This document shows, one piece after another, positions 33,632 through 63,936 of a DNA stretch of 64,000 nt. This DNA is from a virus. Location of the stretch: positions 96,001 through 160,000 of the IMG/VR virus record IMGVR_UViG_3300027749_000039; one strand, given 5' to 3'. Numbering within the stretch: position 1 is the first letter of the stretch; every line of letters begins with the position of its first letter. Below the pieces are notes generated by a model. That model did not search any database. It saw only the letters and a list, made by a program, of their open reading frames with translations, and was not told where the DNA came from. The position numbers were made by a program, and so were the translations under genes.

Positions 33632-33721
33632 ATGAAACATTTCAGCTCACATAAACATTCGTTTAAATTCTGGTTTAGCAATCAGGGTTCGGTAGAGTTT
33701 TGTTTCAAAAATGCTTCATAA
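33632..33721 (+). CDS. Leader peptide 1, MKHFSSHKHSFKFWFSNQGSVEFCFKNAS (putative attenuator)
   Basis: A-rich start context; codons 2-16 are only K/H/F/S/W, matching the downstream tRNAs. Confidence 0.8.
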   Translation: MKHFSSHKHSFKFWFSNQGSVEFCFKNAS

Positions 33722-33740
33722 GAAGTTATTGAAATGAACT

Positions 33741-33781
33741 AAAAATCTCCGAACTTTATATAAAGTTCGGAGATTTTTTTT
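33741..33781 (+). terminator. Attenuator terminator 1
   Basis: AAAAATCTCCGAACTTT-ATAT-AAAGTTCGGAGATTTTTTTT. Confidence 0.9.
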
Positions 33782-33785
33782 ATAT

Positions 33786-33859
33786 GGTGATATTGGTGTT
33801 AGCGGTTAGCATGGGACCCTGTGAAGGTCTAGGGACGGATTCGAATTCCGTATATCACC
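33786..33859 (+). tRNA. tRNA-His(GTG)
   Basis: G-1, C73; GGACC-CTGTGAA-GGTCT. Confidence 0.88.
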
Positions 33860-33862
33860 CAA

Positions 33863-33981
33863 GAAAAGGTAGATTAAACAAAGAAATTATTTAATTGAAA
33901 CTAGTATAGATTAAATAATCGTATTGATGGTAAAGGTAAGCGGTTAAGCGGAAGATAGTGGTTCGAATCCACTCCTTTTCA
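33863..33981 (+). pseudogene. Degenerate tRNA-like element
   Basis: GAAAAGG/CCTTTTC acceptor and a perfect T arm, with no recognisable D or anticodon arm. Confidence 0.45.
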
Positions 33982-33992
33982 CGAAATAATAT

Positions 33993-34066
33993 GGTGATTG
34001 TAGCTCAATTGGTAGAGCGCAGGTTTGTGGAACCTGAGGTAGCGGGGTCGGAGCTCGTCAATCACC
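33993..34066 (+). tRNA. tRNA-His(GTG)
   Basis: G-1, C73; CAGGT-TTGTGGA-ACCTG; atypical T loop. Confidence 0.8.
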
Positions 34067-34072
34067 CAATAA

Positions 34073-34144
34073 GGTAATCAAGCTAACTTGGTAACGTGGG
34101 AGATTCCAACCCTCCAGTCGTCGGATCGTAACCGGCTGTTCGTG
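34073..34144 (+). pseudogene. Decayed tRNA, probably Trp(CCA)
   Basis: TTCCAAC loop and T arm present; acceptor 5' strand does not pair. Confidence 0.45.
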
Positions 34145-34155
34145 CAAAATAAAAT

Positions 34156-34228
34156 ACGGGTATGGTGAAAATGGCTATCATTTTTGTCTCCAAAACAAAA
34201 GTTCCGGATTCGAATTCTGGTGCCCGTG
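34156..34228 (+). tRNA. tRNA-Trp(CCA)
   Basis: TTTGT-CTCCAAA-ACAAA; G73. Confidence 0.88.
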
Positions 34229-34235
34229 CTAAAAT

Positions 34236-34307
34236 GGTGTTGTAACATAGAGGTTTATGTGTTGATCTGAAAAATCAAAAATGCCAGATCGTTACTGGCC
34301 GACACCA
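34236..34307 (+). tRNA. tRNA-Phe(GAA)
   Basis: TTGAT-CTGAAAA-ATCAA; T loop ATCGTTA. Confidence 0.85.
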
Positions 34308-34370
34308 CAAAAATAAATTAAAAAAGGAAGACGCACCCATTTTATATATAAGTAAATAACAAATATAAAA

Positions 34371-35249
34371 ATGGGTGCGAATTCAAAAGAATGGACAGAA
34401 AAGGAAAAAGAAATACTTTTTAAATATTTTCCGAGTATGGGTAGTAATTATTGTTCAGAATTAACAGGAAGAACAAAAAGAGCTTGTCAAGAAATGGCAA
34501 AAAAATTAAAATTGAAGAGAGATTTAGATAAGTATGAAGATAAAGAAAAATTAGAGGAGTTAGTTAAAGGTTGTAAATCATATACAGAATGTGTAATAAA
34601 ATTGGGGTTATCTCCCAGATGTTCTGGTAATTTTCAGACTATCAAAAAATATATCACAATATATAATATAGATATTTCACATTTTGAAAATGGATTTCAA
34701 ATAGGCAACAAACCTCAAAATAAGAAAGAATTATCAGAAGTTTTAATAGAAAACTCTTTTTTTAGCAGAACTCATCTTAAAGAGAGACTATATAAAGAGG
34801 AATTAAAAAAGAAAGAATGTGAGATATGTGGAATTGGTGAAGATTGGTTTAATGGAACTAAAATAGTCCATATTTTAGACCATATAAATGGTGAGCCTTA
34901 TGATAATCGTCTTGAAAATTTAAGAATCGTTTGTCCTAATTGTAATTCAACATTAGAAACAAATTGTGTTGGGAATAAAGTTAATAAAATATATGATTCT
35001 AAAAAAGATGAATATAAAAGTGAAAAAACACATAAAAAATGTAATTGTGGTAAAATAATTTTGAAAGAAAGTAAATTTTGTTCAGAATGCAATGCCAAAA
35101 GTAAAAGAAAAATTATTAATAGACCAACATTTGAAGAATTAGTTAAGTTAATAGAAGAAAATGGTAATACTGGAACAGGTAAAATATACGGCGTTAGCGA
35201 AGCTGTCATAAGAAAATGGTTAAAACAATATAAAAATAAATTAGTATAG
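34371..35249 (+). mobile_element. Free-standing HNH homing endonuclease inside tRNA array 1
   Basis: CEIC...LDHINGEPYDNRLENLRIVCPNCNS and a C-terminal HTH. Confidence 0.88.
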
Positions 35250-35262
35250 AATATACTAAAAT

Positions 35263-35337
35263 ACAGACTAGTCTATGGTAGTCGGCGGAACTCCAAATCC
35301 CGTGTGACTCGAGTCAGTTCAATTCTGGCAGTCTGTG
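35263..35337 (+). tRNA. tRNA-Trp(CCA), atypical D arm
   Basis: ACAGACT/AGTCTGT acceptor; CTCCAAA loop. Confidence 0.6.
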
Positions 35338-35347
35338 CTAATAAATT

Positions 35348-35431
35348 GGAAAGTCCTAATTAGGAGTAGTTAGCCGTTTTGAAAACGGTGAAGGTGTAAT
35401 AGCCGTGGGGGTTCGAGTCCGTCACTTTCCG
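35348..35431 (+). tRNA. tRNA-Ser(TGA)
   Basis: GCCGT-TTTGAAA-ACGGT; long variable arm; G73. Confidence 0.82.
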
Positions 35432-35442
35432 CAAAATAAAAT

Positions 35443-35519
35443 ACGGGTTTCGTCTAATATTTAAGACACCTCCCGGCAAGGGAGTTAATGTTGTAAGGGT
35501 GAAAATCCTACAACCCGTG
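35443..35519 (+). pseudogene. Atypical tRNA-like element (loop CGGCAAG, T loop GTGAAAA)
   Basis: ACGGGTT/AACCCGT acceptor and D arm intact; anticodon and T loops non-canonical. Confidence 0.45.
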
Positions 35520-35535
35520 CAAAAAGATTAAAATT

Positions 35536-35571
35536 ATGAAACAATATAAACAGATTAAACAAAAACAATAA
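35536..35571 (+). CDS. Mini leader peptide MKQYKQIKQKQ ahead of three tRNA-Lys genes
   Basis: A-rich start context, four AAA Lys codons, alternative hairpins downstream. Confidence 0.55.
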   Translation: MKQYKQIKQKQ

Positions 35572-35603
35572 GTTAGGCTCCTATGGATGCTTAACAAATA
35601 TAA

Positions 35604-35678
35604 GCATTCGTAACTCAGAGGCAGAGTATTCGGCTTTTAACCGAAGTGGCGAGATTTCAAAATTCTCCGGATGCACCA
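35604..35678 (+). tRNA. tRNA-Lys(TTT)
   Basis: TTCGG-CTTTTAA-CCGAA; CCA encoded. Confidence 0.88.
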
Positions 35679-35681
35679 AAA

Positions 35682-35753
35682 CCGCTTGTAGCAAACTGGT
35701 GTAGGCAAGAGTCTTTTAAACTCTGGGGCTGGGTTCGACTCCCGGCAGGCGGA
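35682..35753 (+). tRNA. tRNA-Lys(TTT)
   Basis: AGAGT-CTTTTAA-ACTCT. Confidence 0.85.
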
Positions 35754-35758
35754 CAATA

Positions 35759-35830
35759 GATTTTATATGTCAATGGTTAGACTAGCAGACTCTTAATCTG
35801 CGGATCTGAGTTCGAGTCTCAGTGAAATCA
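35759..35830 (+). tRNA. tRNA-Lys(CTT)
   Basis: GCAGA-CTCTTAA-TCTGC. Confidence 0.88.
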
Positions 35831-35846
35831 CAAAAAATTTTTAAAA

Positions 35847-37115
35847 ATGTTAGAAATAAAATTATTTAGGCAAAATAAGGACCTAATTATAGAAGGACTT
35901 AAAAAGAAAAATTTTAAGCAACTTAATTTAGTTGATGAAATTATTAAATTGGATGAAGATTTAAGAAAATTAAAACAGGAAACTGAAAATTTAACTTCTG
36001 TTATTAATAAAAATAATAGCGAAATTGCAAGATATATTAAAACAGATGCAGTTAAGGTAGAAAATATTAAAACTCATAATATTATTTTAAATGAAAAAAT
36101 TGAGGAATTAACTAATATACTAAATCAAACTGAAAACGAGTTATTGGATAATTTAATTCAATTACCAAATCTTCCAAATCAAATTGTAGAAATAGACAAT
36201 GGTAATGAAGCAACTAATGGTAATGTTATTATAAGAGAAAACTTAACTCAGTGTACACAAGGTAAACCTCATTGGGAAGTAATTAAAGATTTAAATATAG
36301 TTAGTTTTGAACTAGGAACTAAAATTACTGGTGCTGGGTTTCCTGTTTATATCGGAAAAGGCGCAAGATTACAAAGAGCTTTAATTCAATATTTTTTAGA
36401 TTATAATACTAATGCTGGTTATACAGAATATAATATACCATTAATGGTTAATTATGATTCTGCATATGGTACAGGACAACTCCCTGATAAAGAAGGTCAA
36501 ATGTATTATGCTGAAAAGGATAATTTATACTTAATTCCAACAGCAGAAGTTCCTTTAACTAATATCTTTAGAGATGAAATAGTTAATTTGCCCATAAAAA
36601 TGACAGGACATAGTGCTTGTTTTAGAAGAGAAGCTGGCGCACATGGTAAAGAAGTAAGAGGGTTAAATCGAGTTCATCAATTTGAAAAAGTTGAAATAGT
36701 TCAATTAGTTCAACCTGATAAAAGTTATGAAGTATTGGAAGAAATGGTTTTACATGTTGAGAACTTGATAAAAAGCTTAGAATTACCATATAGAATACTT
36801 AAATTAAGTGGCACAGATATGAGTTTTGCATCTGCTTTAACTTATGACTTTGAAGTATATAGTGCGGCTCAAGACAGATGGTTAGAAGTAAGTTCTGTGA
36901 GTAATTTTGAAACTTTCCAATCTAATCGTATGAAAATTAGATTTAAAGAAGATAAAAAGAACAAATTAGTTCATACTTTAAATGGAAGTTCTTTAGCATT
37001 ACCAAGAATAATGGCTTGCTTATTAGAAAATAATCAAACACATGAAGGTATAAAAATACCAGAAGTATTAATACCGTATTACGGTGACAAATTTTTAACA
37101 AATGGAAAATTATAA
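35847..37115 (+). CDS. serS: Seryl-tRNA synthetase
   Basis: N-terminal coiled coil, LIPTAEVPL, FRREAG, RVHQFEKVE, EVSSVSN and LNGSSLALPR. Confidence 0.95.
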   Translation: MLEIKLFRQNKDLIIEGLKKKNFKQLNLVDEIIKLDEDLRKLKQETENLTSVINKNNSEIARYIKTDAVKVENIKTHNIILNEKIEELTNILNQTENELLDNLIQLPNLPNQIVEIDNGNEATNGNVIIRENLTQCTQGKPHWEVIKDLNIVSFELGTKITGAGFPVYIGKGARLQRALIQYFLDYNTNAGYTEYNIPLMVNYDSAYGTGQLPDKEGQMYYAEKDNLYLIPTAEVPLTNIFRDEIVNLPIKMTGHSACFRREAGAHGKEVRGLNRVHQFEKVEIVQLVQPDKSYEVLEEMVLHVENLIKSLELPYRILKLSGTDMSFASALTYDFEVYSAAQDRWLEVSSVSNFETFQSNRMKIRFKEDKKNKLVHTLNGSSLALPRIMACLLENNQTHEGIKIPEVLIPYYGDKFLTNGKL

Positions 37116-37347
37116 AAAATTAATAGAGAAATATAAAGTTGAAATAGTAGATTATATTATTTCTTCAAAAGACCAATTAGAAGAATACCGTAAAAAGTAT
37201 TTAGGCGCAAATGGAATTATAAAACAAGTTTATAATCAATTAAAACAAGTTCCTGCTGAAAAAAGAAAACAAGCAGGAGAATTGTTAAGAGGATTAAAAG
37301 ATTGTGCTGAAAATAAATATGAAAATTCTTTTGTTAATTCAAAATAA
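37102..37347 (+). CDS. Stand-alone PheRS alpha-subunit N-terminal tRNA-binding arm
   Basis: LEEYRKKYLGANGII...LKQVPAEKRKQAGELL matches the PheS N-terminal coiled coil; no catalytic domain follows. Confidence 0.72.
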   Translation: MENYKKLIEKYKVEIVDYIISSKDQLEEYRKKYLGANGIIKQVYNQLKQVPAEKRKQAGELLRGLKDCAENKYENSFVNSK

Positions 37348-37409: not shown

Positions 37410-37466
37410 ATGAAAACAATATCATCGTCTAGTCGCAGTAGTTTAACTTTGGAAATCCAGAGATGA
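37410..37466 (+). CDS. Leader peptide 2, MKTISSSSRSSLTLEIQR (putative attenuator)
   Basis: Block TCA TCG TCT AGT CGC AGT AGT; downstream tRNAs are Ser and Arg(ACG). Confidence 0.8.
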   Translation: MKTISSSSRSSLTLEIQR

Positions 37467-37485
37467 TAGTGTATGTATATACTTG

Positions 37486-37517
37486 AAGCCTTGGATTGTA
37501 AAATTCAAGGCTTTTTT
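37486..37517 (+). terminator. Attenuator terminator 2
   Basis: AAGCCTTGGAT-TGTAAA-ATTCAAGGCTTTTTT. Confidence 0.88.
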
Positions 37518-37523
37518 AATTTT

Positions 37524-37614
37524 GGTGAGTTACTCAAGTGGTCAAAGAGGCTTGTTTGCTAAACAAGTAGGACGGTAAAACGTTGCGTGGGTTCGAACCC
37601 CACACTCACCGCCA
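37524..37614 (+). tRNA. tRNA-Ser(GCT)
   Basis: CTTGT-TTGCTAA-ACAAG; long variable arm; GCCA end. Confidence 0.92.
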
Positions 37615-37617
37615 AAA

Positions 37618-37658
37618 TATACAGATAATTGCGGGTTCGAGACCCGTTCTGGATACAA
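37618..37658 (+). pseudogene. tRNA 3'-half remnant
   Basis: Isolated GCGGG-TTCGAGA-CCCGT T arm. Confidence 0.4.
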
Positions 37659-37664
37659 AAATAT

Positions 37665-37738
37665 GGTCTCATCGTTCAATGGATTTAGGATACTTGGCTA
37701 CGAACTAAGAGATTGGGGTTCGAATCCCTATGAGACTA
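37665..37738 (+). tRNA. tRNA-Arg(ACG)
   Basis: CTTGG-CTACGAA-CTAAG. Confidence 0.9.
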
Positions 37739-37744
37739 CTAATA

Positions 37745-37832
37745 GGAAAGTTGGCAGAGCGGTTTAATGCGCTGGCACTGAAGCCGGTGACTGGCAAAAG
37801 CCGGTCCGTGAGTTCGAATCTCATACTTTCTT
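37745..37832 (+). tRNA. tRNA-Ser-type with 6-nt anticodon loop ACTGAA (possibly degenerate)
   Basis: GGAAAGT acceptor, long variable arm and normal T arm; anticodon loop one nt short. Confidence 0.55.
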
Positions 37833-37836
37833 ATAT

Positions 37837-37926
37837 GGAGAAGTAAAACGAAATTGGTATCGTCCCTGATTGGAAATCAGGTTATCGGGTCAAACTGGTA
37901 TGTAGGTTCGAGTCCTATTTTCTCCG
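37837..37926 (+). tRNA. tRNA-Ser(GGA)
   Basis: CCTGA-TTGGAAA-TCAGG; long variable arm; G73. Confidence 0.88.
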
Positions 37927-37970
37927 CAATGTTTCAAAAAAAGAAATATACTTAATAATACACAATTAAA

Positions 37971-39091: not shown

Positions 39092-39967
39092 ATGAAATGG
39101 ACAAAAGAAAAATGTAAGGAGATTTCAAATTTATTTGATAATATAAGTGACTTTGAGAAAGAGTATAGAGGGTCTTATATGTCTGCTAGAAGAAATGGTT
39201 GGTTAGAAGAAATAACCAAACATATGAAAAAAAGAGAGACCTTGACCGAGAAAAGGTGTCATGAGATTTCATCAAAATTTGAAACTAAAACAAAATTATG
39301 TGAACATAATAGTTCTGTTTATAAAAAAATTATGAAGAACAAATGGCTATATATGTTTTCTCATATGGAAAATAATAATAGTAGTGAAGATGATAGATGT
39401 ATATACGCATACGAATTTAATGATAACAGTGTTTATGTAGGATTAACAAAAAATGTTAAAACTAGAAATAATTTGCATATGAAACATGGTAGTGTTTTTG
39501 AACATATAAGAATATGCAATGATTTTAAGTTAATAATCTTAACAGATTATTTACCAGTTTATGAATCAAAATTAAAGGAAGATGAATATCTTAATTATTA
39601 TAAAAATAATGGATGGAAAGTCTTAAACAAGATAAAAACTGGTGGTATAGGTAGTTGCGGATATTTGAATAGGACATCATATTGGATAAAAGAAAAATGT
39701 ATTGAAGAAGCATTAAAATATACAAATAGAAGCGAATTTCAATATAATTCGGGAAGTGCATATCGCTCTGCTCAAAAAAATAAATGGTTAGATGAAATAT
39801 GTTCGCATATGCAACCACTCCGAAATTACAAGGGATATTGGACAAAGAAAAAATGTGAAGAAGAATCTTTGAAATATAAAAATAAAAATCAATTTCAAAA
39901 AAATAATAGTGCCGCATATATGTGTTCATACAAAAATGGTTGGCTAAATGAATTTTATAAAAGTTAA
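39092..39967 (+). mobile_element. GIY-YIG-like homing endonuclease with WTKEKC repeats
   Basis: CIYAYEF..NSVYVGLT..R...H; repeated W(T/I)KEKC..EALKY modules. Confidence 0.75.
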
Positions 39968-39973: not shown

Positions 39974-40630
39974 ATGAAAAAATACGATAAGATTCCATAT
40001 TGGAATAAAGGATTATTTGACTCTGATTGTATCGGGTTTAATAAAGAAGATGGTTCAAATATGAGATTTGAGTGGTCAAAAAAACGTGGGTTTTATAAGT
40101 TTGGAACTCGTAATGTAATGATTAATGAGAAAGATGAAAACTTTGGAAAAGCTATTCCTTTATTTTTAGAAAAATACGGCGAAGATTTACCAAGAGTATT
40201 TGTTAATAAATATAAAAAAGTAGAAAACTTTGTTGTATTTGGTGAATATGTTGGTGAAAATTCCTTCGCTGGATGGCATGACCCAAATGATAAAATGGAT
40301 ATTATTTTATTTGATGTTAATCAATATAAAAAGGGGTTCATTTCTCCATATGAGTTTTTAGATAATTTTGGACATTTATCAATTCCTTCTGTTATTTATC
40401 AAGGTAAATATACACAAGAATTAATAGACAATGTTAGAAAGAATGTTTTTAACTTAAAAGAAGGTTTAATTACTAAAGGAATTACTTATACTAAAAAAGA
40501 AGGTGAAGCAATTTGGCAAGTAAAAGTTAAGACTAACGACTGGCTTAAAAAAGTAAAAGAAAAGCTAGGTGATAAAGCTTTAGCTGATGAATTAAATGGA
40601 GATAAATCATTAATAGCAGAATACATATAA
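39974..40630 (+). CDS. RNA-ligase-type nucleotidyltransferase
   Basis: KEDGSN (motif I), FGEY, LFDV, EGLI and VKVKT. Confidence 0.7.
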   Translation: MKKYDKIPYWNKGLFDSDCIGFNKEDGSNMRFEWSKKRGFYKFGTRNVMINEKDENFGKAIPLFLEKYGEDLPRVFVNKYKKVENFVVFGEYVGENSFAGWHDPNDKMDIILFDVNQYKKGFISPYEFLDNFGHLSIPSVIYQGKYTQELIDNVRKNVFNLKEGLITKGITYTKKEGEAIWQVKVKTNDWLKKVKEKLGDKALADELNGDKSLIAEYI

Positions 40631-40633: not shown

Positions 40634-41338
40634 ATGGAAAGAGAATATAAAAGAACTGATTGGGATATTATATCCTTCAAAACAAAAGAAGGTGAAATAA
40701 TTGATGAAACACATGCTGAATTTGAAAAACTATGTAAAATGCATGAAGATTGGGAATTTAGTTGTGATACGGTTTCTGATTGTAGAAACCAATTTTATAA
40801 AGAACAAGTCAAGAGCAATGGATTTCCGGTAATATACTCTGTTAGAAATAATGTATTTTGTCCTACTGGAATTGGTTATCAATCCGAGATACTAACAATC
40901 GGTGATGAATATGGAACAACTTTTCGTGGTTCAAATCCAAAAGAAAGAAGTTGGGGTAAAATACTTGCGTTTTATCAAATAAACGAACAAATGTGTATAG
41001 AAGAAAAAAGAGGTGGTCAGCCAGTATCAAATATGATAGCTAAAATTGATCCCAACATACCATGGAAATATAAAACAATTTTTGAAAAATCACTAACTGA
41101 TGATGTTTTACATGAAATAGCTAAATTATCTGGTGTATTTGAAAATGATGAATACTTTTTTGATACATATGATGGTGGCATTAGAGTTATTGATTCTTTG
41201 AGTGAAGTAGGATATAGATTACAAATGTATCCAAATGGTGCGGTAAATTGTATATCAAAACATGATATGTGCCCGGACGAATATAAAGCTAAAGAACTTT
41301 ATAAATTTATTTTAAAAATTTTTGATGAAAAAAATTAG
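40634..41338 (+). CDS. Hypothetical protein
   Basis: ORF track. Confidence 0.7.
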   Translation: MEREYKRTDWDIISFKTKEGEIIDETHAEFEKLCKMHEDWEFSCDTVSDCRNQFYKEQVKSNGFPVIYSVRNNVFCPTGIGYQSEILTIGDEYGTTFRGSNPKERSWGKILAFYQINEQMCIEEKRGGQPVSNMIAKIDPNIPWKYKTIFEKSLTDDVLHEIAKLSGVFENDEYFFDTYDGGIRVIDSLSEVGYRLQMYPNGAVNCISKHDMCPDEYKAKELYKFILKIFDEKN

Positions 41339-42026
41339 TAAAAGGCAGGTAGCCCCAGACTACCATAGAATACCACACTTTAATAAGGAAATTTCCAACA
41401 TGACGCACGATGACATCATATTGGAAACAGATATACAATTTCCTATTGAGTGTTGGATTCAAGAAAAACTCGATGGTGCTAATACTGGAATTGGATGGCT
41501 AAATGATGGTCCTATATTAAGGAATAAAGAACATATTTTAAAGAAAGGATATTCTAAAATTAAAACACCGGCAAAAAAGCAATTTACATCTGCTTGGAAT
41601 TGGGTGCATAAACATAAAGAAGATATTGAGTTTATCCAAGAAATGTGTTATTCACAAATTACTATATTTGGTGAGTGGTTATATGCGCAACATTCGTTGC
41701 ATTATGATAAATTACCTGATTTATTTATAGCATATGATATATGGTCAGTAGAGGATAATTCTTATTTAAGTCCAGAAATAGTGGATACATTATTATCACA
41801 AACTGATATAAAATATATTAAACCTATAAAAACTACTCTTAATTCAATACAAGATATAATTGAATTATCCGAAAAAGAATCAGATTATAGAACTGGCATA
41901 AGAGAAGGTATAGTTATTAAACATGCTGAGGGTAGATTATGTACTCAGATGTATAAAGTGGTAAATAATAAGTTTATTCGCAGAGAAGATTTTAATAAAG
42001 AATTAATAAAAAACACCGTTAAATAA
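41322..42026 (+). CDS. RNA ligase (Rnl2-like adenylyltransferase domain)
   Basis: QEKLDGAN, FGEWLY, FIAYDI, REGIVIK and YKVV. Confidence 0.85.
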   Translation: MMKKISKRQVAPDYHRIPHFNKEISNMTHDDIILETDIQFPIECWIQEKLDGANTGIGWLNDGPILRNKEHILKKGYSKIKTPAKKQFTSAWNWVHKHKEDIEFIQEMCYSQITIFGEWLYAQHSLHYDKLPDLFIAYDIWSVEDNSYLSPEIVDTLLSQTDIKYIKPIKTTLNSIQDIIELSEKESDYRTGIREGIVIKHAEGRLCTQMYKVVNNKFIRREDFNKELIKNTVK

Positions 42027-44614: not shown

Positions 44615-44780
44615 AAAATGTAAAATATGCGACAATCAGTTTGTCGCATTAACGGAAGAAAAAGTATTCTGTTCTCCGGAATGCCTTATTACATATGTCA
44701 AATCAGATGAATTTGATAAAGAGATGGAAGACTATTTTAATTCTTCAAATAAGATAGATGAAAAAGGCAATAATATTTGA
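44604..44780 (+). CDS. Small Zn-finger protein (58 aa), not in track
   Basis: Hand-read MINKKCKICDNQF...FCSPEC. Confidence 0.5.
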   Translation: MINKKCKICDNQFVALTEEKVFCSPECLITYVKSDEFDKEMEDYFNSSNKIDEKGNNI

Positions 44781-45345
44781 TTTATATGATACTCTGCTAA
44801 AAATAGAGAAAAAATCAAAACCATATTTGTATTTATTAAATCATGTAGTTCCAATGGATGTATCTCAAAAAGATATTATAAATCATCTTATGACTAATGA
44901 TTTACCGGCTATACGCTTTATAACACAAATACAGGATATAGGTTTATTAGATGAACAATTTGAACAACACACATTTTTAAAATATCTTGATGCTGAAGTC
45001 GAGTCTACTAGTGTCATATCCGGAACTTTTAGAGTATTAGATAAATTAAAAAATGCCGGTTATAGATTATTCATTTTATCTAATTTAGCAACTCCATATA
45101 AATATCCGTATTATAAATACAACCTGGATAAGTGGATTGAAAAAGCTTTTTTCTCTTGTGATTGTAAGGATAAAAAACCAAATGCTTCTTTTTTTCAACA
45201 AGTAGTAGATTATTCTGGGTTAAATAAAGAAGATTTTATAATGATAGGTGATAATCCTATATCAGATGTAAAAGGAGCTGTTGATTTTGGAATGGAAGCT
45301 TTATTGAAAAATAAAGATTTGTATGTCCTAACCCAATACTTATGA
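44758..45345 (+). CDS. HAD-superfamily hydrolase
   Basis: IIFDLYDTL, LSN, KKP and MIGDNPISDVKGA. Confidence 0.9.
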   Translation: MKKAIIFDLYDTLLKIEKKSKPYLYLLNHVVPMDVSQKDIINHLMTNDLPAIRFITQIQDIGLLDEQFEQHTFLKYLDAEVESTSVISGTFRVLDKLKNAGYRLFILSNLATPYKYPYYKYNLDKWIEKAFFSCDCKDKKPNASFFQQVVDYSGLNKEDFIMIGDNPISDVKGAVDFGMEALLKNKDLYVLTQYL

Positions 45346-46817: not shown

Positions 46818-46827
46818 ATGTTAAATT

Positions 46828-46911: not shown

Positions 46912-46915
46912 AATT

Positions 46916-46995: not shown

Positions 46996-46996
46996 C

Positions 46997-47091: not shown

Positions 47092-47095
47092 ATCT

Positions 47096-51051: not shown

Positions 51052-51119
51052 TTTAAATTAGAAACGGAATAGTTATCCGTTTCTTTTTTTTTTATATATA
51101 ATAAAAAATATATATTTTA

Positions 51120-53460: not shown

Positions 53461-53534
53461 GCAAGATTCGCCTAGTTGGTATGGCATCACACTTCCAATG
53501 TGAAATAGGGCCGGTTCGAGACCGGCATCTTGCT
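53461..53534 (+). tRNA. tRNA-Gly(TCC), solitary
   Basis: TCACA-CTTCCAA-TGTGA; U73. Confidence 0.88.
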
Positions 53535-53608
53535 CAACACATATAATACGAAAATCTATTTGTTAATTCAAATAGATTTTCGTATTTTTGCTTATTAAAA
53601 GAAATTCT

Positions 53609-54682
53609 ATGAAATTTAACACATTTCCCGAAAATATAAATCCTTTCCAGAAAAAAGGTATAGTAAAGTTTGGTATCGATCCAACTGGCTCTGAGATGCA
53701 TTTAGGACACCTCTTACCTTTGAGAATTGTGAAAAAATTCAAAGCCGAAGGTTTCCCTATACATATTATACTAGGCACATTTACAGCTCAAATTGGAGAC
53801 GCTACTGGTAGAGATGCTACCCGTCCAATCTTAACAGAGCTAGAAACTATTGAAAATGGTGAAAAATTACTTCAACAAGTAAAAAGAATACTTGGTGATG
53901 ATATAATAATTCACAAAAATACAACTTGGCATAATGCAATGCAACTACCAGAGTTTATGAAGGTTATATCTAATTTTTCAGTTCAAAAGCTATTAAATAG
54001 AGATAATTTTGCTAAACGTATGGAAGCTCATGTGCCTATCGCTATGCACGAGTTGATGGGTCCAATACTACAAGGTATAGATTCATTTCAGTTAAATACT
54101 ACCGTAGAAGTTGGTGGTTCTGATCAATTATTTAATTTTGTAATTACAAGAGAAGTACAAGAATTATTGGGACAAACACCAGAAGTTTGTGTGCTATCTC
54201 CTGTTATTAACGGATTAGATGGACGTAAAATGTCTAAATCATTTGGTAATTGTATTTTTATTAATGATACCCCAGAAGATGTATTTGGTAAAGTTATGTC
54301 TATTTCAGATGAAACTATGAGAGAGTGGCTTCCTATATTTTTTGACGAAATAGATGCTACAAAACATCCAATGGTTCAAAAGAAAGAATTAGCATTTCGA
54401 ATAACACAGGAAATATGGAGTTTAGAAGCGGCGGAAACGGGTAAAGCACACTTCCAATCTGTTATACAAAGTAGGGAACTACCTGAAAATATGCCTGAAT
54501 TTGAAATAGGTAATTTAACTGAAATAGTTAGTAAAATTATTAATGGTTCTAAAACAGAAGCAAGAAGATTATTAACTTCAAATGCTGTTAAAATTAATGG
54601 TGAAAAAGTAGCAGAAGGGTTTGAAGTAAAGTCTGGTGATATAGTTAAAGTAGGTAAAAGAAATTTCGCAAAAATTATATGA
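53609..54682 (+). CDS. tyrS: Tyrosyl-tRNA synthetase (bacterial type, C-terminal S4 domain)
   Basis: GIDPT..MHLGH, IGD, QGIDS, GGSDQLFN and KMSKS; start ATG 53609 follows the promoter at 53583-53590. Confidence 0.92.
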   Translation: MKFNTFPENINPFQKKGIVKFGIDPTGSEMHLGHLLPLRIVKKFKAEGFPIHIILGTFTAQIGDATGRDATRPILTELETIENGEKLLQQVKRILGDDIIIHKNTTWHNAMQLPEFMKVISNFSVQKLLNRDNFAKRMEAHVPIAMHELMGPILQGIDSFQLNTTVEVGGSDQLFNFVITREVQELLGQTPEVCVLSPVINGLDGRKMSKSFGNCIFINDTPEDVFGKVMSISDETMREWLPIFFDEIDATKHPMVQKKELAFRITQEIWSLEAAETGKAHFQSVIQSRELPENMPEFEIGNLTEIVSKIINGSKTEARRLLTSNAVKINGEKVAEGFEVKSGDIVKVGKRNFAKII

Positions 54683-58295: not shown

Positions 58296-58407
58296 TTAAC
58301 TTTTAGTTTTATATTTCATATGAAAAAAATAATATGCTTTCTCTACTAACTTTTTTTGTTTTTGTTAGATTATTTTCGTAATTTTGTATAAATTGAAAGA
58401 TAAAAAT

Positions 58408-59346
58408 ATGAAAGATTCATTAGGTGATAGGATAAAAGAATACGAATCACAAACATGTGGAACTCGTTTAATGGGCAGACTGCCCGTGATATGCCGGCTC
58501 GACGGAAAGAATTTTAGCCGCTTTACTAAAGGTTTAAAGCGTCCATATGATGAACGTTTATCTAATCTTATGGTTGAAACTACTAAGTATTTAGTTAAAG
58601 AAACTAATGCTAATTGTGGCTATCATCAATCAGATGAAATTACTTTAGTATGGTATTCTGACTCATATGAATCTAAAATTTATTTTGATGGACGCTTATT
58701 CAAAATGATTTCTGATTTAGCCGCCATGGCTTCTGTATTTTTCAATAGAGAATTACCAAGCTATTTACCAGAAAAAGCACACTTGATGCCTCGTTTTGAT
58801 TGTAGAGTATTTAGCATACCTACAATTCACGAAGCTGCTAACTGCTTTCTGTGGCGCGAATTAGATGCTACTAAGAACTCAATTAGTATGGCTGCACAAC
58901 ACTATTATTCTCACAAAGAATTAGAAGGTAAAAATGGTTCGGAAAAACAAGAAATGCTTTTCCAAAAAGGCGTAAATTGGAATGACTACCCAGCCTCATT
59001 TAAAAGAGGAACCTATATTCAAAGGAAAAGAGTTCTAACAAAGTTTTCTACTGAAGAATTAGAGAATTTACCTGTTAAACACCAAGCTAGGCAAAATCCT
59101 GACTTGATGATTGAGAGATGGGTAATAGATAGGATAGATTTACCGCCTTTGATGACTATACAGAATAGAGAAGAAGTAATTCTTTTTGGAGCTGAGCCAA
59201 ATGACGTGCGTGTAGTAGGTTATACTATTGAAGATATGTTAGAAGCTTTCTATGCAAAAGGTGATAAAGTTGATATGACAGAATTTAAATTCTGGGTAGA
59301 TTCAGTATTACCTTTGCTAAAAACAAAAGAAAAAGAATTAATATGA
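58408..59346 (+). CDS. tRNA-His guanylyltransferase (Thg1-like protein)
   Basis: RIKEYE, RLDGKNFSRFT, QSDEITL, FDGR and FDCRVF. Confidence 0.92.
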   Translation: MKDSLGDRIKEYESQTCGTRLMGRLPVICRLDGKNFSRFTKGLKRPYDERLSNLMVETTKYLVKETNANCGYHQSDEITLVWYSDSYESKIYFDGRLFKMISDLAAMASVFFNRELPSYLPEKAHLMPRFDCRVFSIPTIHEAANCFLWRELDATKNSISMAAQHYYSHKELEGKNGSEKQEMLFQKGVNWNDYPASFKRGTYIQRKRVLTKFSTEELENLPVKHQARQNPDLMIERWVIDRIDLPPLMTIQNREEVILFGAEPNDVRVVGYTIEDMLEAFYAKGDKVDMTEFKFWVDSVLPLLKTKEKELI

Positions 59347-59605: not shown

Positions 59606-59845
59606 ATGAAAATGATAGTTGAAGAGTGGGGAGACGGGTATGAAAATAGTGGCGTATCTGTAACACTTATTAAATCAGATGGCAAAGAAATGAACGTTAC
59701 ATTTAGAGATGGCGAACGTGAGGATATGGTTATAGCTAGGGATTTAAGCGATGCAACATATATAGCATCGCTTATTAAAACTGCATATGATGCTGGTAAA
59801 ACAGGTGAAGAATTGATAATTGAATATAAAGATATAGAAGAATAA
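59606..59845 (+). CDS. Hypothetical protein
   Basis: ORF track. Confidence 0.65.
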   Translation: MKMIVEEWGDGYENSGVSVTLIKSDGKEMNVTFRDGEREDMVIARDLSDATYIASLIKTAYDAGKTGEELIIEYKDIEE

Positions 59846-60591
59846 TGAAACAAGTTGTGTATCTAGGCGATATTCACGGCAACTTTGATTGGTTGAAACG
59901 TGAGATAAAAAGAGTTGGCATAGGTGAAAATGAAGAAGTAGCTTATATAATCCAAGTTGGAGATTTTGGAATCGGATTTAATAATAAATCCGATTTAGAT
60001 ACTTTAAACTTATTAAATGAGTTTCTTAAATTGAGGAATATAATAATGATTGCTATTCGTGGTAATCATGACGACCCTTCATTTTTTCAAGGTAATCATA
60101 TTTATTCTAATTTGATGTTAGTGCCTGATTATACTACTATGGAAATAGATGGTAGAAACCATTTATTCGTGGGTGGTGCTATATCAATAGATAGAAAGTA
60201 TAGGCTACATAAAGATCAGATAGCTGCATCTTATGGCTCTTCACAGAAGTCATATTGGTATGATGAACTATTCTTATTAAATGAAGAAAAGTTAAAAGAT
60301 ATAACTGGTATTGATGTAGTTATATCACATACTGCTCCTGAGTGGTGCTATCCTGATAATAGAAATGGGTTTGGTCCATTTGTTGATGAATTTGCTTATG
60401 ATGATGATAAGTTATACACTGATTTGGATAAAGAACGTAAAGATGTGACTAAAATGTTCCAAATTTTAGAAAAAAATGGTAATACTATTCAGTATCATGC
60501 ATATGGTCATTTTCATTCAAGTCAAATAACTATGAATAGATATTGCAATCATTATTTATTAGGTATAAATGAGTTTAGGGAATTATATTAA
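59845..60591 (+). CDS. Calcineurin-like metallophosphoesterase
   Basis: GDIHG, VGDFG, RGNHD, SHTAP and GHFH. Confidence 0.9.
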   Translation: MKQVVYLGDIHGNFDWLKREIKRVGIGENEEVAYIIQVGDFGIGFNNKSDLDTLNLLNEFLKLRNIIMIAIRGNHDDPSFFQGNHIYSNLMLVPDYTTMEIDGRNHLFVGGAISIDRKYRLHKDQIAASYGSSQKSYWYDELFLLNEEKLKDITGIDVVISHTAPEWCYPDNRNGFGPFVDEFAYDDDKLYTDLDKERKDVTKMFQILEKNGNTIQYHAYGHFHSSQITMNRYCNHYLLGINEFRELY

Positions 60592-61370
60592 TTCCCTAAA
60601 CTCATTTTTATTTCTATATATTTGTTATACTTTCTTTTAAGACCAAAAGTAAAGTCGGAATATAACCAATTTAAAAATTTAATAGAATTTTTTCTACCAC
60701 CTATATATAGAATAGAATGTTTATTATTACCATTTATAATTCTTCTGATAGAATATTTAATACCTAAATTAATAGATATATCTTCTAAATATTTCCAATC
60801 TTGTCCGTATGTGCTTGCAAAATATATTTGAGGTGATTTATTACTGAAGTTTATACACCCATCGCCGTCCATTATTCCTCTTAGAAAATATTTAATATCT
60901 TCCTGTTTAATCTTCATTAAATTAAAATCTGGCGAGGCTGTACTTTTATTTTCATAATTAAATGACCTAAATATATTTACAATATCTTTAGAACAGTATT
61001 GGATACACGCAGATGTTTTTGTTCTGCCCTTTCTTAATCTTTCATTATAATAAAAATTTCCTAATTTTTCAAATATTGGTTTGATATCGTCTAAATCTTC
61101 TTTTAGTATTTCTATACCTATATTATTACCGACTAAATATCCATCAGACCATAATAATCCCATTATATAGGACACATAAGGATTATCAACTTTTTCAAAT
61201 GTATCTAAACTTGGGTAAATATATTTTTTATTATAACTCAATTTTAATTTTTTAGCTTTGTTTTTAACCATATCAATAGTAAAATTACTCAATATTTCAT
61301 TTATTTTAGTTGGTCCAATTTTGTGGTAGTTTTCTACCATGAATTTTATTTCGTGTTCTTTCCATTCCAT
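60588..61370 (-). mobile_element. LAGLIDADG homing endonuclease
   Basis: YIMGLLWSDG and YFLRGIMDGDG motifs. Confidence 0.88.
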
Positions 61371-61477
61371 AATTTATATATTATTTATGATATAGCCCCT
61401 AATAATGTTTACACGCAAATAAAATAAATATGAAAATAATTTTGTCAATTCAAAACTTTTTCGTACTTTTGTAATCT

Positions 61478-61675
61478 AATTAAGAACATAGAAACTAGCA
61501 TAGTGTAATAAACTATGTAAAAACTTTACATGCTCACAGAACGTTAAAATTTTATCATTATAACAGGTTACTTAATCGAAAGAAGATAATTGGTATAATG
61601 TATATCTATAAGATATAATAAAATTATAACCTTTCAATCCGAAAGGCATAGACTTAGAGTGTAAAGAGTTTCAAA
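61478..61675 (+). ncRNA. Candidate ~200-nt structured RNA with its own promoter
   Basis: Promoter at 61464-61471, no ORF, nested stems (see findings). Confidence 0.4.
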
Positions 61676-61716
61676 AATAAATCTGAAAATAATTTTGCAA
61701 ATTAAAAACTTTATTG

Positions 61717-61808: not shown

Positions 61809-61910
61809 ATGAAAAACATTAATAGAAATAATAATACCATAAATTTAGTCATAAATAACGTGAATACGTTATGCGTGATTAGAGGAGTTATGGGGTTAAG
61901 TCTATTATGA
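61809..61910 (+). CDS. Leader peptide 4, MKNINRNNNTINLVINNVNTLCVIRGVMGLSLL (putative attenuator)
   Basis: Codons 3-25 use only N/I/R/T/L/V/C, the specificities of the downstream array. Confidence 0.85.
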   Translation: MKNINRNNNTINLVINNVNTLCVIRGVMGLSLL

Positions 61911-61937: not shown

Positions 61938-61971
61938 AATCTCAAACTCAAAAAGTTTGAGATTTTTTTTT
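61938..61971 (+). terminator. Attenuator terminator 4
   Basis: AATCTCAAACT-CAAAA-AGTTTGAGATTTTTTTTT. Confidence 0.9.
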
Positions 61972-61981
61972 ATGTTAAAAT

Positions 61982-62069
61982 GGCGCAGTGATGAAACTGG
62001 TTAGTACATGCAGGACTTAAAATCCTGTGGACAGAAATGTCCGTGTCGGTTCGACTCCGACCTGCGCTA
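61982..62069 (+). tRNA. tRNA-Leu(TAA)
   Basis: CAGGA-CTTAAAA-TCCTG; variable arm. Confidence 0.9.
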
Positions 62070-62076
62070 CAAAACT

Positions 62077-62150
62077 CGGCGGGTAGCTTAGACGGTAAAA
62101 GCACGAATCTTATAAATTCGAGATAGTGGGATCGTTACCCACCCCTCCGA
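62077..62150 (+). tRNA. tRNA-Ile(TAT)
   Basis: CGAAT-CTTATAA-ATTCG. Confidence 0.82.
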
Positions 62151-62155
62151 CAAAT

Positions 62156-62228
62156 GGTTCTATCGTACAATGGATTAGTACAAGGCTCTTCTAAAGCCTT
62201 TATGTGGGTTCGAATCCCGCTGGAACTA
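62156..62228 (+). tRNA. tRNA-Arg(TCT)
   Basis: AGGCT-CTTCTAA-AGCCT. Confidence 0.9.
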
Positions 62229-62279
62229 CAATCGTTATTAATTTTTATTAGGGAGTTCGGTTTATATAATATATAATTT

Positions 62280-63086
62280 ATGAGACATAAACAAACAGAA
62301 CAAACTAAAAAGAAGTTATCAGAAATAAGAAAAAAATGGTTAGCAGATAATCCAGAAAAACATCCATGGAAAAGAAAAGATAAATTCTTATCTAAGCCTT
62401 GTGAATTTTTCAAAAAGAAATTATTGGAAAATAATTTAACTTTTTCGGAAGAACAAAACTTACTTGAAGGAAGAGCATATTCGGTAGATGTAGTTTTTTA
62501 TGATAAAATGATTGGATTTAAAATAAATGGAAATCAACATTATAATTCAGATAAAACTCTTAAAGATTATTATAAAAAAAGGAAAGAAGAGATTGAAATT
62601 TTAGGATGGAAATTATATGATATACATTATACAAAAGTTTATAATGAAAAATTTATAGAGGAAATAATAAAATTCATAAAAGAGCAAAAGGAAATTCCAA
62701 ATTTTAATTTTGAATTTTTTATAAAAAAGGTTAAAAAAATATGTAAAGATTGTGGTAAAGAAATATCATATAATAGCATAGAAAGATGTTTAAAATGTCA
62801 TAATATATCCAGAAGAACAGAAAAATATGAAGTTAATTTAAAATATAAAATAGGTGCTAATAAAAAAGAAAAATTTATAAAAAATTGTAATTGTGGTGAA
62901 ATAATATCCATAAATTCAAATAATTGTAAGGAATGTTTTGATAAAATACAAAGAAAAATAGTTGATAGACCAAGTTTAGAAATTTTATTAGAAGAGGTTA
63001 AAGATATAGGATATAGTGCGGTTGGTAGAAAATATGGAGTTAGTGATAATTCTATAAGAAAGTGGATAAAAAATTATCAAAAATAA
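62280..63086 (+). mobile_element. Vsr/DUF559-like endonuclease with Zn fingers and HTH, inside tRNA array 4
   Basis: YSVD...GFKINGNQHY, L..LGW, CxxC pairs, and a C-terminus shared with 34371..35249. Confidence 0.75.
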
Positions 63087-63090
63087 AAAT

Positions 63091-63162
63091 TGTCGTATAG
63101 CTTAGTGGGGAAGCGTCAGCAGAAGTAGCTGAAGGGCATAGGTTCAATTCCTGTTGCGACTA
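63091..63162 (+). pseudogene. tRNA with aberrant anticodon loop AGAAGTA
   Basis: Cloverleaf intact but no U33. Confidence 0.55.
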
Positions 63163-63169
63163 CAAATAA

Positions 63170-63241
63170 GGTTCCTTAACTCAGAGGCAGAGTGCTACTT
63201 TTACATGGTAGAAGTCGGGATTTCAAAATTCCCAGGAACCA
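63170..63241 (+). tRNA. tRNA-Val(TAC)
   Basis: CTACT-TTTACAT-GGTAG. Confidence 0.85.
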
Positions 63242-63248
63242 CAAAAAT

Positions 63249-63320
63249 TGGAATGTAGCTCAGAGGCAGAGCAGGATCCTGTTAAGATCAAGGTCGAGAT
63301 ATCGTAATTCTCCATTCCAG
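63249..63320 (+). tRNA. tRNA-Asn(GTT)
   Basis: GATC-CTGTTAA-GATC; G73. Confidence 0.82.
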
Positions 63321-63325
63321 CAAAT

Positions 63326-63397
63326 AGTCTTATAGCTCAAAGGCAGAGTGCCTGTTCGACATACAGGAGGTTGCGATATCGTAATTCGCTAAGACTA
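63326..63397 (+). tRNA. tRNA-Val(GAC)
   Basis: CCTGT-TCGACAT-ACAGG. Confidence 0.8.
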
Positions 63398-63406
63398 CAA
63401 ATAAAG

Positions 63407-63480
63407 GGGCGTATGGTGAAATTGGTTTATCACGTCTGACTGTTAATCAGTTATTATAGGTTCGAGTCCTATTGTGCCCG
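63407..63480 (+). tRNA. tRNA-Asn(GTT)
   Basis: CTGA-CTGTTAA-TCAG; G73. Confidence 0.85.
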
Positions 63481-63507
63481 CTAATTAAATAAAAAAAGTA
63501 AATAATA

Positions 63508-63586
63508 CGGAACGTACCGAGTCACACTGATAATGTGGATATTCGTAAAGGTGTTGAAAATGAGATTTCAAGATTCTCCGTTCCGA
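63508..63586 (+). other. D-armless tRNA-Ile(GAT)-like RNA
   Basis: CGGAACG/CGTTCCG acceptor, CACA-CTGATAA-TGTG, T arm present; D arm replaced by an extended helix. Confidence 0.5.
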
Positions 63587-63592
63587 CAAAAT

Positions 63593-63668
63593 GCCAAATT
63601 AGTATAGCGGCGATTATACCAACCTTGTAAGTTGCGAGACACCAGTTCGAGTCTGGTATTTGGCTCCA
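63593..63668 (+). tRNA. tRNA-Thr(TGT)
   Basis: CAAC-CTTGTAA-GTTG; TCCA end. Confidence 0.88.
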
Positions 63669-63702
63669 CTACTGATCAGAATCCAGTGATTCAGATCTAA
63701 AA

Positions 63703-63778
63703 CGGACTATAGCTCATTATTGGTTAGAGCGTCACGCTGATAACGTGAAGGTGGTTGGATCGAAGCCAGCTAGTCCGA
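63703..63778 (+). tRNA. tRNA-Ile(GAT)
   Basis: TCACG-CTGATAA-CGTGA. Confidence 0.88.
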
Positions 63779-63784
63779 CAAAAT

Positions 63785-63857
63785 GCTAAAGTGTCTGAAT
63801 GGTTGAGGAACTTTCTTGGTATGAAAGATAATATCGGTTCGAATCCGTTCTTTAGCT
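63785..63857 (+). tRNA. tRNA-Thr(GGT)
   Basis: CTTTC-TTGGTAT-GAAAG. Confidence 0.85.
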
Positions 63858-63863
63858 CTTAAT

Positions 63864-63936
63864 GGCGCCTTGGTCGAGTGGTTATAGGCGCAGGTCTGCA
63901 AAACCTGATACATTGGTTCAATTCCAGTAGGCGCCT
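63864..63936 (+). tRNA. tRNA-Cys(GCA)
   Basis: CAGGT-CTGCAAA-ACCTG; U73. Confidence 0.9.

Follow-up and report, generated by a model that had tools for sequence, protein, structure and literature searches.

The stretch of DNA described here, which we call the window, is 64,000 nucleotides long and comprises bases 96001-160000 of a 190,602-bp virus record, IMGVR_UViG_3300027749_000039 (G+C ~28%), from a phage of a Bacteroidota-type host. By ARAGORN it carries 35 tRNA genes, all on the plus strand and spanning 33434-63937 (positions are those of the window unless given as genome positions). One arrangement recurs at each of the seven tRNA arrays of the record, four times inside the window (L1-L4) and three times outside it (L5-L7): a short open reading frame (ORF) beginning ATG-AAA, then a U-tailed hairpin, then an array of tRNA genes. 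A sequence-only reading of the window had picked out the four inner units, and they lie where it put them. We believe that these units are probably ribosome-mediated leader-peptide transcription attenuators, gating tRNA operons that often include the matching synthetase and so tying supply to demand.

The units are built to a common plan (Table 1). All seven leaders have a start and a stop codon, begin with ATG-AAA and run for 16-33 codons; a promoter motif (see below) stands upstream of them, with L7 as the exception. Between each leader and its first tRNA sits an intrinsic terminator with a stem of 11-17 bp (-11 to -21 kcal/mol), the T tract of which stops 1-15 nt short of the tRNA. In L1-L4, the G+C-containing hairpin, 11-17 bp with its T tract, follows the leader by 18-27 nt, and the first tRNA begins a few bases 3' of the T tract. 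A Bacteroidota-type promoter motif (TTTG, 19-21 nt, TAnnTTTG), which we take to be the housekeeping consensus of that phylum, lies 55-95 nt 5' of L2, L3 and L4. The sequence-only reading had put a promoter before every leader in the window; at L1, the promoter-like site P1 precedes two tRNA-Met genes (33434-33593) that stand 5' of the leader. Lying between P1 and L1, before the attenuator, the pair would be made unconditionally. The second tRNA-Met has a mismatched 1:72 pair, as in initiators, but its anticodon stem is without their three G:C pairs. A scan of the whole 190,602-bp genome gave no MK-leader-plus-terminator unit beyond the seven that precede tRNAs.

It is what the leaders encode that sets them apart. 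Each contains a block of codons for the amino acids of the tRNAs behind it, with cognate codons counted under standard wobble rules. In L1, the block is codons 3-15 (33638-33676), for His/Phe/Ser/Lys/Trp, and 12/13 are cognate to array 1. The L2 block, codons 5-11 (37422-37442), is solely Ser/Arg, all 7/7 cognate, and samples TCA, TCG, TCT, AGT and CGC. That of L3, codons 12-22 (46695-46727), encodes Gly/Ala/Tyr/Glu (11/11 cognate, with 7/7 anticodons covered), and that of L4, codons 3-25 (61815-61883), encodes Asn/Ile/Arg/Thr/Leu/Val/Cys (23/23 cognate, 11/11 anticodons covered). Pairing the seven leaders with their own arrays gives 83 cognate codons, set against 26.7 +/- 12.1 for permuted pairings, none of the 5040 permutations reaching 83. 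Each leader is also enriched for the codons of its own array relative to phage codon usage (binomial P 6e-3 to 8e-8). Under the enrichment test that the sequence-only reading had proposed, the true pairing beats all shuffled pairings, 5040 here and 720 in a 508-kb relative. Chance is excluded as the cause of the match by permutation in both genomes, and also by six matches to the L1-block pattern, described below, that occur in other contexts with no terminator and no tRNAs.

The match goes deeper than amino acids. Among 38 array-specific anticodons, 37 have at least one cognate codon in their own leader, the sole miss being Lys-CTT. Drawing new synonymous codons for the same peptides according to phage usage covers 31.9 +/- 1.8 anticodons, and 13/5000 draws attain the observed 37. 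G+C at third codon positions is 0.32 in the leaders and 0.16 genome-wide. Together, the resampling and the third-position composition indicate that the leaders sample isoacceptors, beyond mere amino acids.

A real rule of this kind predicts matching leaders for the arrays outside the window as well, and three were found: L5, L6 and L7. The Leu/Met-rich L5 block (CTA, TTG, CTT, ATG) precedes Leu-TAG, Leu-AAG, Leu-CAA and Met tRNAs, with AsnRS behind the array. In L6, a Gln/Pro/Asp block precedes three Asp tRNAs and Pro-TGG, the last visible at a relaxed threshold only. The five Gln codons of L7 (5/5 cognate) precede three Gln tRNAs and, behind them, GlnRS. L7 is an odd case. A DUF559-type endonuclease ORF (genome 171640-172569, equal to L001 11640-12569) runs stop-free into it, making L7 the last 16 codons of the endonuclease gene. 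Since L6, upstream, already has five Gln codons, the Gln array is apparently doubly gated.

An attenuator needs two mutually exclusive structures. Full-length minimum-free-energy folds always contain the terminator and so cannot discriminate between states, and we therefore examined the alternatives with folds truncated before the 3' arm and by masking ribosome footprints. In truncated folds, the 5' arm of the terminator pairs with leader sequence in 7/7 units, and in 6/7 it does so with the strand that directly follows the block. The truncated fold of L2 gives a different upstream partner; there, the pairing of AATCCAG rests on duplex and covariation analyses. Pairing is strongest in L5 and L1, at about -14 kcal/mol (-13.5 to -14.2 for the L1 duplex), matched by at most 1/300 shuffles. 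Over the seven leaders, the mean 5'-arm duplex is -9.4 kcal/mol, compared with -4.9 kcal/mol at 75 other terminator-like hairpins of the genome (Mann-Whitney P = 9e-5). That the leader just 3' of each block can pair with the 5' arm had been proposed from the sequence, and the predicted pairings bear it out at all seven units. Masking a ribosome footprint inside the block leaves the 5' arm sequestered (0.62-0.93); with the ribosome at the stop codon, sequestration falls to 0.05-0.19 for L3-L7. Members of the L1 family have a further option, a 1:2 hairpin in which the antiterminator strand folds back onto the block (predicted probability 0.47-0.96), and a trp-like 1:2 / 2:3 / 3:4 scheme is plausible but unproven, as modelled from these folds.

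Relatives of the phage provide an independent view. Metagenomic homologues of its SerRS, on phage-like contigs, are 64-89% identical to it. Used as a lone query, the SerRS found no relative in IMG/VR; an alignment of the metagenomic homologues recovered several, including a 508-kb record, with SerRS identities of 52-55%. All of the metagenomic and IMG/VR relatives recovered have L1-type and L2-type leaders with terminators and matching arrays, as do two public huge-phage records of 635-642 kb, LR756502.1 and LR745206.1. A degenerate pattern for the L1 block matched 22 IMG/VR contigs. Sixteen of these matches are L1-type leader ORFs, and in 15 of the 16 a terminator and His/Phe/Trp/Lys tRNAs follow; the last locus is cut off before this can be seen. 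(The remaining six are the matches in other contexts mentioned above.) A blastn search of the array region against a phage collection returned single tRNAs only, and no close cultured relative was found.

From metagenomes, IMG/VR and the public huge-phage records, we assembled 20 distinct L1-type leaders. In 20/20, the best partner of the terminator 5' arm begins 3-9 nt past the block, and the pairing is made by different sequences in different lineages: GTTCGG/CCGAAC, GTTCAG/CTGAAC, GATTCGA/TCGAAT and GAACTTGG/CCAAGTT. The reading frame is maintained across them by in-frame indels (the W codon lies at nt 40 or 46), and the order within the block varies by lineage (HSFKFWFS vs HFSKSWFS) while its composition is constant. 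In an alignment of seven L1 sequences, the 6-bp antiterminator core is 95% paired, with a G:C to A:U swap. For L2, aligned over seven relatives, the 7-bp antiterminator helix is 88% paired, with 3/7 pairs changed on both sides, against at most 55% for slid controls; this is comparable to the L2 terminator itself, which is 98% paired with two compensatory pairs.

The 508-kb relative is the most instructive. Its six units pair best with their own arrays (the best of 720 permutations), and its leader codons change where its tRNA content changes, the co-variation that the sequence-only reading had proposed to look for in related phages. Its Ser/Arg array lacks Ser-GCT and the block lacks AGY, whereas the focal phage has Ser-GCT and uses AGT three times. 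Its Glu/Tyr/Gly/Ala array includes Ile-TAT, and the block has ATA twice. The equivalents of focal arrays 4 and 5 are merged, with ATG and CTA included in the block. In a second lineage (183-kb and 82-kb records), a single array of 23-28 tRNAs stands behind one diverse leader of ~30 codons, which cover 18 of 20-21 anticodons, with an antiterminator of -13 to -15 kcal/mol. Some relatives also have a full pheS behind an FFF leader, or ileS behind an Ile-run leader. Recurring in the 508-kb relative, the two 635-642-kb records and at least 15 more IMG/VR contigs, the design is, by sequence comparison, a conserved feature of a large clade.

How might such a unit work? The architecture, the codon-anticodon match, the alternative pairings and their conservation are established here; for leader translation, stalling and regulated read-through, we lean on the classical trp/his/ilv/pheST paradigm. 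Transcription would start at a Bacteroidota-type promoter and a ribosome would translate the short leader. While the aminoacyl-tRNAs that the array can supply are plentiful, the ribosome would pass through the block, the antiterminator strand would be covered or re-sequestered, the U-tailed hairpin would form and RNA polymerase would halt just 5' of the first tRNA. Were any of these aminoacyl-tRNAs scarce, the ribosome would stall in the block, leaving the strand just 3' of it to capture the 5' arm, and the array, plus any synthetase, would be transcribed. The outcome would be negative feedback that keeps each set of tRNAs at the level needed.

Several observations weigh against this account. 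The earlier claim that each block matches only its own array was slightly too strong: the true pairing is the best of 5040, but the AGC codon of L1 is not read by any tRNA of array 1 and needs the Ser-GCT of array 2, and L1 offers no AAG for the Lys-CTT of array 1. The MK(N/T)I-type prefix common to all leaders inflates the matches of array 4, the codon set of which already makes up 40% of phage codon usage. Five Asn codons of L5 have no tRNA in that unit and are matched by AsnRS alone, and Gly-TCC, sampled by L3, is 6.7 kb off, with a probable terminator (51060-51084) in between. L7, in frame with the endonuclease ORF before it, lacks a promoter of its own. Three antiterminators, those of L2, L3 and L6, are short (7 bp, -6.6 to -8 kcal/mol) and individually no better than shuffles. 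Folding supported the terminator/antiterminator alternatives that had been proposed, which exist at 7/7 units and show compensatory changes in relatives for L1 and L2, but simple ribosome masking does not explain the geometry of L1 and L2, in which a ribosome at the stop codon leaves the 5' arm sequestered (0.77 and 0.71, respectively). For these two, an extra assumption is needed, either that no helix closes around the ribosome or that the 1:2 hairpin re-forms. Moreover, untranslated leaders are predicted to fold at equilibrium as the antiterminator, so the default state may be ON, unlike trp. Finally, amino-acid starvation would stall ribosomes too, and extra tRNA is no remedy for that; the physiological signal may be either tRNA loss or amino-acid starvation.

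The best of the other explanations, improbable in our estimation, is that these are ordinary pheST-like attenuators acquired along with host synthetase genes, with the tRNAs as passengers and the match reflecting the grouping of tRNAs with their synthetase. There is something to this. SerRS, a PheRS remnant, AsnRS and GlnRS lie at the ends of the L1, L5 and L7 operons, the Asn codons of L5 match AsnRS only, and in relatives Phe and Ile leaders stand directly 5' of pheS and ileS. The phage SerRS is ~60% identical to cellular Bacteroidota enzymes (e.g. those of Chitinophagaceae and Flavipsychrobacter). Yet most of what the leaders sample has no synthetase in the unit: His/Trp/Lys in L1, Arg in L2, Glu/Gly in L3, everything in L4, Leu/Met in L5 and Asp/Pro in L6. 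Arrays 2 and 4 have no synthetase whatever. The synonymous codons track the isoacceptor set, which a synthetase sensor has no need of, and in the 508-kb relative leader codons follow the gains and losses of tRNAs.

Alternatively, the hairpins could be constitutive or leaky terminators, insulators or elements of pre-tRNA processing or stability, the ORFs having no regulatory effect and their composition being kept for another reason, such as a function of the peptide or an RNA structure. The order HKHFSK..WFS and the nucleotides TCACATAAACATT are kept even where SerRS is ~52% identical, which exceeds what codon content needs, and because the T tract abuts the first tRNA, the element doubles as a pre-tRNA 5' leader. 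We nonetheless rate this as decidedly improbable. Seven unrelated peptide compositions each fit their own array, block order varies, blocks gain and lose codons with tRNAs, and the pairing between leader and 5' arm co-varies, which is not expected of a plain terminator.

Opposite, coupling-type logic, like that of pyrBI, would have a ribosome that keeps pace with RNA polymerase melt the terminator, giving positive feedback. The leaders do end near terminators, and with the untranslated RNA predicted to be antiterminated at equilibrium, a trp default is not obvious. A ribosome covers ~12-13 nt downstream of its A site. With 18-27 nt between stop codon and 5' arm in the focal phage, and 18-35 nt across the L1 family, none of these leaders ends within the ~12 nt of the hairpin that pyrBI-type control calls for, and a terminating ribosome could not touch the hairpin. 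The conserved, co-varying antiterminator strand just 3' of the block would also have no role, and we regard this logic as very unlikely. Least credible of all is direct, ribosome-free sensing of tRNA by codon-anticodon pairing, T-box-like: the codons on display do correspond to exactly those tRNAs downstream, but they sit in an ATG-to-stop frame maintained by in-frame indels, tRNAs would have to recognise as many as 23 codons in a row, the folds have no T-box-like stem I or specifier-loop architecture, and the matches to Rfam 15 across 33000-64000 (E <= 0.1) were all to tRNA, with no T-box or other known RNA family.

Leader-peptide attenuation is thus the reading that we prefer, each of the alternatives accounting for less, and it places the phage units in familiar company. 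Like the multivalent attenuators of enterobacteria (ilvGMEDA for Ile/Leu/Val and thr for Thr/Ile, alongside hisL, trpL, pheL and leuL), they have a promoter-proximal ORF with a run of regulatory codons, an intrinsic terminator, an upstream strand a few codons 3' of the block that competes for the 5' arm, and several amino acids sensed through one leader. Unlike these, the phage units would regulate tRNAs (plus synthetases) rather than biosynthetic enzymes, a single block can represent as many as 11 anticodons through a choice of synonymous codons that favours isoacceptor coverage, seven units in one genome divide the code among them, and the output could relieve a shortage of tRNA, not of amino acid. 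The E. coli pheST attenuator (pheM leader) and predicted synthetase attenuators come closer, placing a gene of the translation apparatus under a leader rich in cognate codons; exactly this layout precedes pheS (FFF) and ileS (Ile run) in relatives, and focal operons end with SerRS, AsnRS and GlnRS. The difference is that the first and main products of the phage units are tRNA arrays, two of them without a synthetase, behind leaders that are multivalent and isoacceptor-matched. T-box riboswitches likewise let the state of specific tRNAs switch a terminator and antiterminator before translation-supply genes, but there the RNA itself binds a single uncharged tRNA, by its specifier codon and its T-box sequence, and no ORF is involved.

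The sequence-only reading held that attenuation of this type normally controls biosynthesis or synthetase genes and knew of no counterpart for phage tRNA arrays. Our full-text literature searches (subscription-only papers outside their scope) likewise found no published leader-peptide attenuation of tRNA genes. The synthetases in the operons and the pheS and ileS leaders bring the system closer to synthetase attenuators than that reading allowed. The mechanism itself is known; its application to tRNA genes, codon-partitioned across arrays, would be new. To our knowledge, the regulation of phage tRNA genes is largely unknown, and for tRNA genes at large the accepted point of control is the promoter, through growth rate and the stringent response, not attenuation. 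Huge Bacteroidota phages carry many tRNAs and synthetases (PMC7162821), and the words 'leader' and 'terminator' are both absent from that article.

One cultured phage deserves mention in its own right. The deposited annotation of the Caulobacter phage phiCbK (JX100813.1 47000-53000) has rho-independent terminators directly 5' of three tRNA blocks. Of the short ORFs upstream, one has a QFV.QIQVV..I stretch before Phe/Val/Ile/Gln, another, the 45-aa gp083 before Pro/Lys/Leu/Ser, has abundant S, L, P and K along with abundant A and T, and the ORF before Glu/Asp has no clear match. The resemblance in two of three is suggestive only, and we do not count it in support of attenuation in our phage.

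Table 1. Features of the tRNA operons and their surroundings (window positions unless marked; hairpin energies in kcal/mol)
Feature	Position	Strand	Remarks
Promoter-like site P1	33370-33400	+	TTTG, spacer, TATCTTTG; sequence reading, motif scan
Leader L1, 29 codons	33632-33721	+	Kept in 20 distinct relatives
L1 antiterminator strand	33683-33702	+	Core GTTCGG; pairs with terminator 5' arm; begins 3 nt past block
Terminator 1	33741-33786 (hairpin 33741-33778)	+	17-bp stem (-20.9) and T tract abutting tRNA-His
Array 1	33787-35831	+	His x2, Trp, Phe, HNH ORF, Trp, Ser-TGA, Lys x3
HNH endonuclease ORF	34371-35249		In array 1
SerRS	35847-37115	+	Pfam; closes L1 operon
PheRS alpha N-terminal domain, 81-aa remnant	37102-37347	+	Pfam; closes L1 operon
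Promoter-like site P2	37330-37360	+	
Leader L2, 18 codons	37410-37466	+	
L2 antiterminator strand	37453-37459	+	AATCCAG
Terminator 2	37485-37520 (hairpin 37485-37514)	+	13-bp stem (-16.3) and T tract
Array 2	37524-37927	+	Ser-GCT, Arg-ACG, Ser-TGA-like, Ser-GGA
Homing-endonuclease gene	39092-39967		
RNA-ligase-family gene	39974-40630	+	Pfam; between arrays 2 and 3
RNA-ligase-family gene	41322-42026	+	Pfam; between arrays 2 and 3
HAD hydrolase	44758-45345		Pfam
Promoter-like site P3	46584-46614	+	
Leader L3, 32 codons	46662-46760	+	
L3 antiterminator strand	46738-46744	+	GAGTTGG
Terminator 3	46783-46820 (hairpin 46783-46813)	+	13-bp stem (-17.5) and T tract
Array 3	46828-47819	+	Tyr x2, Glu x3, Ala-TGC x2, Gly-GCC
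Homing-endonuclease gene	47875-48510		
Two Rfam-only tRNAs	48514-48677	+	Downstream of array 3
Ala-GGC	49266-49339	+	Downstream of array 3, ~2.5 kb on; sampled by L3
AlaRS fragment	49461-50240	+	Pfam; downstream of array 3
Gly-TCC	53461-53535	+	Downstream of array 3; sampled by L3
TyrRS	53588-54682	+	Pfam; downstream of array 3
Thg1 (tRNA-His guanylyltransferase family)	58384-59346		Pfam
Metallophosphoesterase	59845-60591		Pfam
Homing-endonuclease gene	60588-61370	-	
Promoter-like site P4	61694-61724	+	
Leader L4, 33 codons	61809-61910	+	
L4 antiterminator strand	61885-61898	+	
Terminator 4	61938-61972 (hairpin 61938-61964)	+	11-bp stem (-11.1) and T tract
Array 4	61982-63937	+	Leu-TAA, Ile-TAT, Arg-TCT, endonuclease-like ORF, Leu-AAG, Val x2, Asn x2, Thr x2, Ile-GAT, Cys; order after the ORF Leu/Val/Asn/Val/Asn/Thr/Ile/Thr/Cys
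Endonuclease-like ORF	62280-63086		In array 4
Homing-endonuclease gene	L001 1300-2133		
Leader L5	starts genome 161034		
Leader L6	starts genome 171086		
Leader L7	starts genome 172519		

The operons do not stand alone. Endonuclease genes of HNH, GIY-YIG, LAGLIDADG and DUF559 types sit within or beside the arrays, and their insertion as homing endonucleases probably drives the rearrangements of arrays between relatives. In relatives, an FFF leader and a terminator precede a complete pheS (L003 11257-12474, L009 7185-8413 and L010 4630-5856); the focal genome has lost pheS and its attenuator, and the L2 unit comes directly after the PheRS remnant. TAG is the stop codon of L5 and of the pheS leader in two relatives, and a tRNA with a CUA anticodon, of the amber suppressor type, lies outside the window at genome 54412-54485 (L002 4412-4485), followed by a second tRNA-like element; amber suppression late in infection could lengthen these leaders. 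A further good promoter motif (61441-61472) lies 5' of P4, with ~200 nt beyond it that have no ORF, tRNA or Rfam match, and 61441-61690 may be an unannotated small RNA.

Some of the tRNAs are themselves unusual. The third of array 2 (37744-37833) is Ser-TGA-like with a non-canonical anticodon loop, in which ARAGORN reads a four-base anticodon, 'ctga'; in one relative (L006, 6897-6987) the loop of its homologue is a normal one of 7 nt that contains TGA. The focal gene may be decaying, may reflect a mistake in assembly or may encode a frameshift-type tRNA. The Ser-TGA of array 1 (35348-35432) is detected solely at a relaxed threshold. Further tRNA-like elements lie at 33863-33981, 47281-47348, 48514-48596 and 48605-48677, which score at or above the Rfam gathering threshold (29-52 bits) and which ARAGORN misses or gives odd loops or insertions; one has an insertion of ~42 nt. 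Two spacers (34068-34155 and 35440-35520) have tRNA-like acceptor and T arms with no family match. All of these may be degenerate, intron-bearing or non-canonical tRNAs.

Alongside the arrays and synthetases are two RNA ligases, Thg1, a HAD hydrolase and a metallophosphoesterase, a candidate tRNA repair kit by analogy with Rnl1/Pnk of T4. The region is a translation-supply and putative repair island. Phage tRNA clusters and repair enzymes can counter host tRNA loss: the T4 cluster acts with Rnl1/Pnk against PrrC, and T5 tRNAs and the tRNAs of vibriophages, which replace degraded host tRNAs, are further examples. Our phage resembles these in having a large tRNA repertoire beside RNA ligases, Thg1 and phosphoesterases, whereas the T4, T5 and vibriophage systems are described as timed by early or middle promoters, not by codon-matched attenuators. 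It is tempting to go further and see in the seven units a distributed decoding sensor, the leaders serving as ribosome-read test strips such that host destruction or withholding of a tRNA, for instance by anticodon nucleases or by tRNA degradation in the course of infection, turns on solely the matching tRNA-plus-synthetase operon, beside the repair kit, in huge Bacteroidota phages and perhaps in other phages. We offer this tentatively, and doubt that it holds in full; the case for host anticodon nucleases as the trigger is circumstantial, drawn from the adjacent RNA ligase, Thg1 and phosphoesterase genes.

If the sensor reading is true, no earlier circuit is known in which the decoding speed of their own codons governs tRNA genes, and the phages would have in it a dedicated counter-defence. 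With one codon sampled for each isoacceptor behind it, a leader would provide tRNA homeostasis through decoding-speed feedback, which would explain why these phages partition their arrays by amino acid. The units offer a simple annotation rule for phage tRNA operons and, for synthetic biology, natural modular devices that could report how much of a given aminoacyl-tRNA is available. They also offer a testable link between tRNA islands and the tRNA-targeting defences of their hosts.

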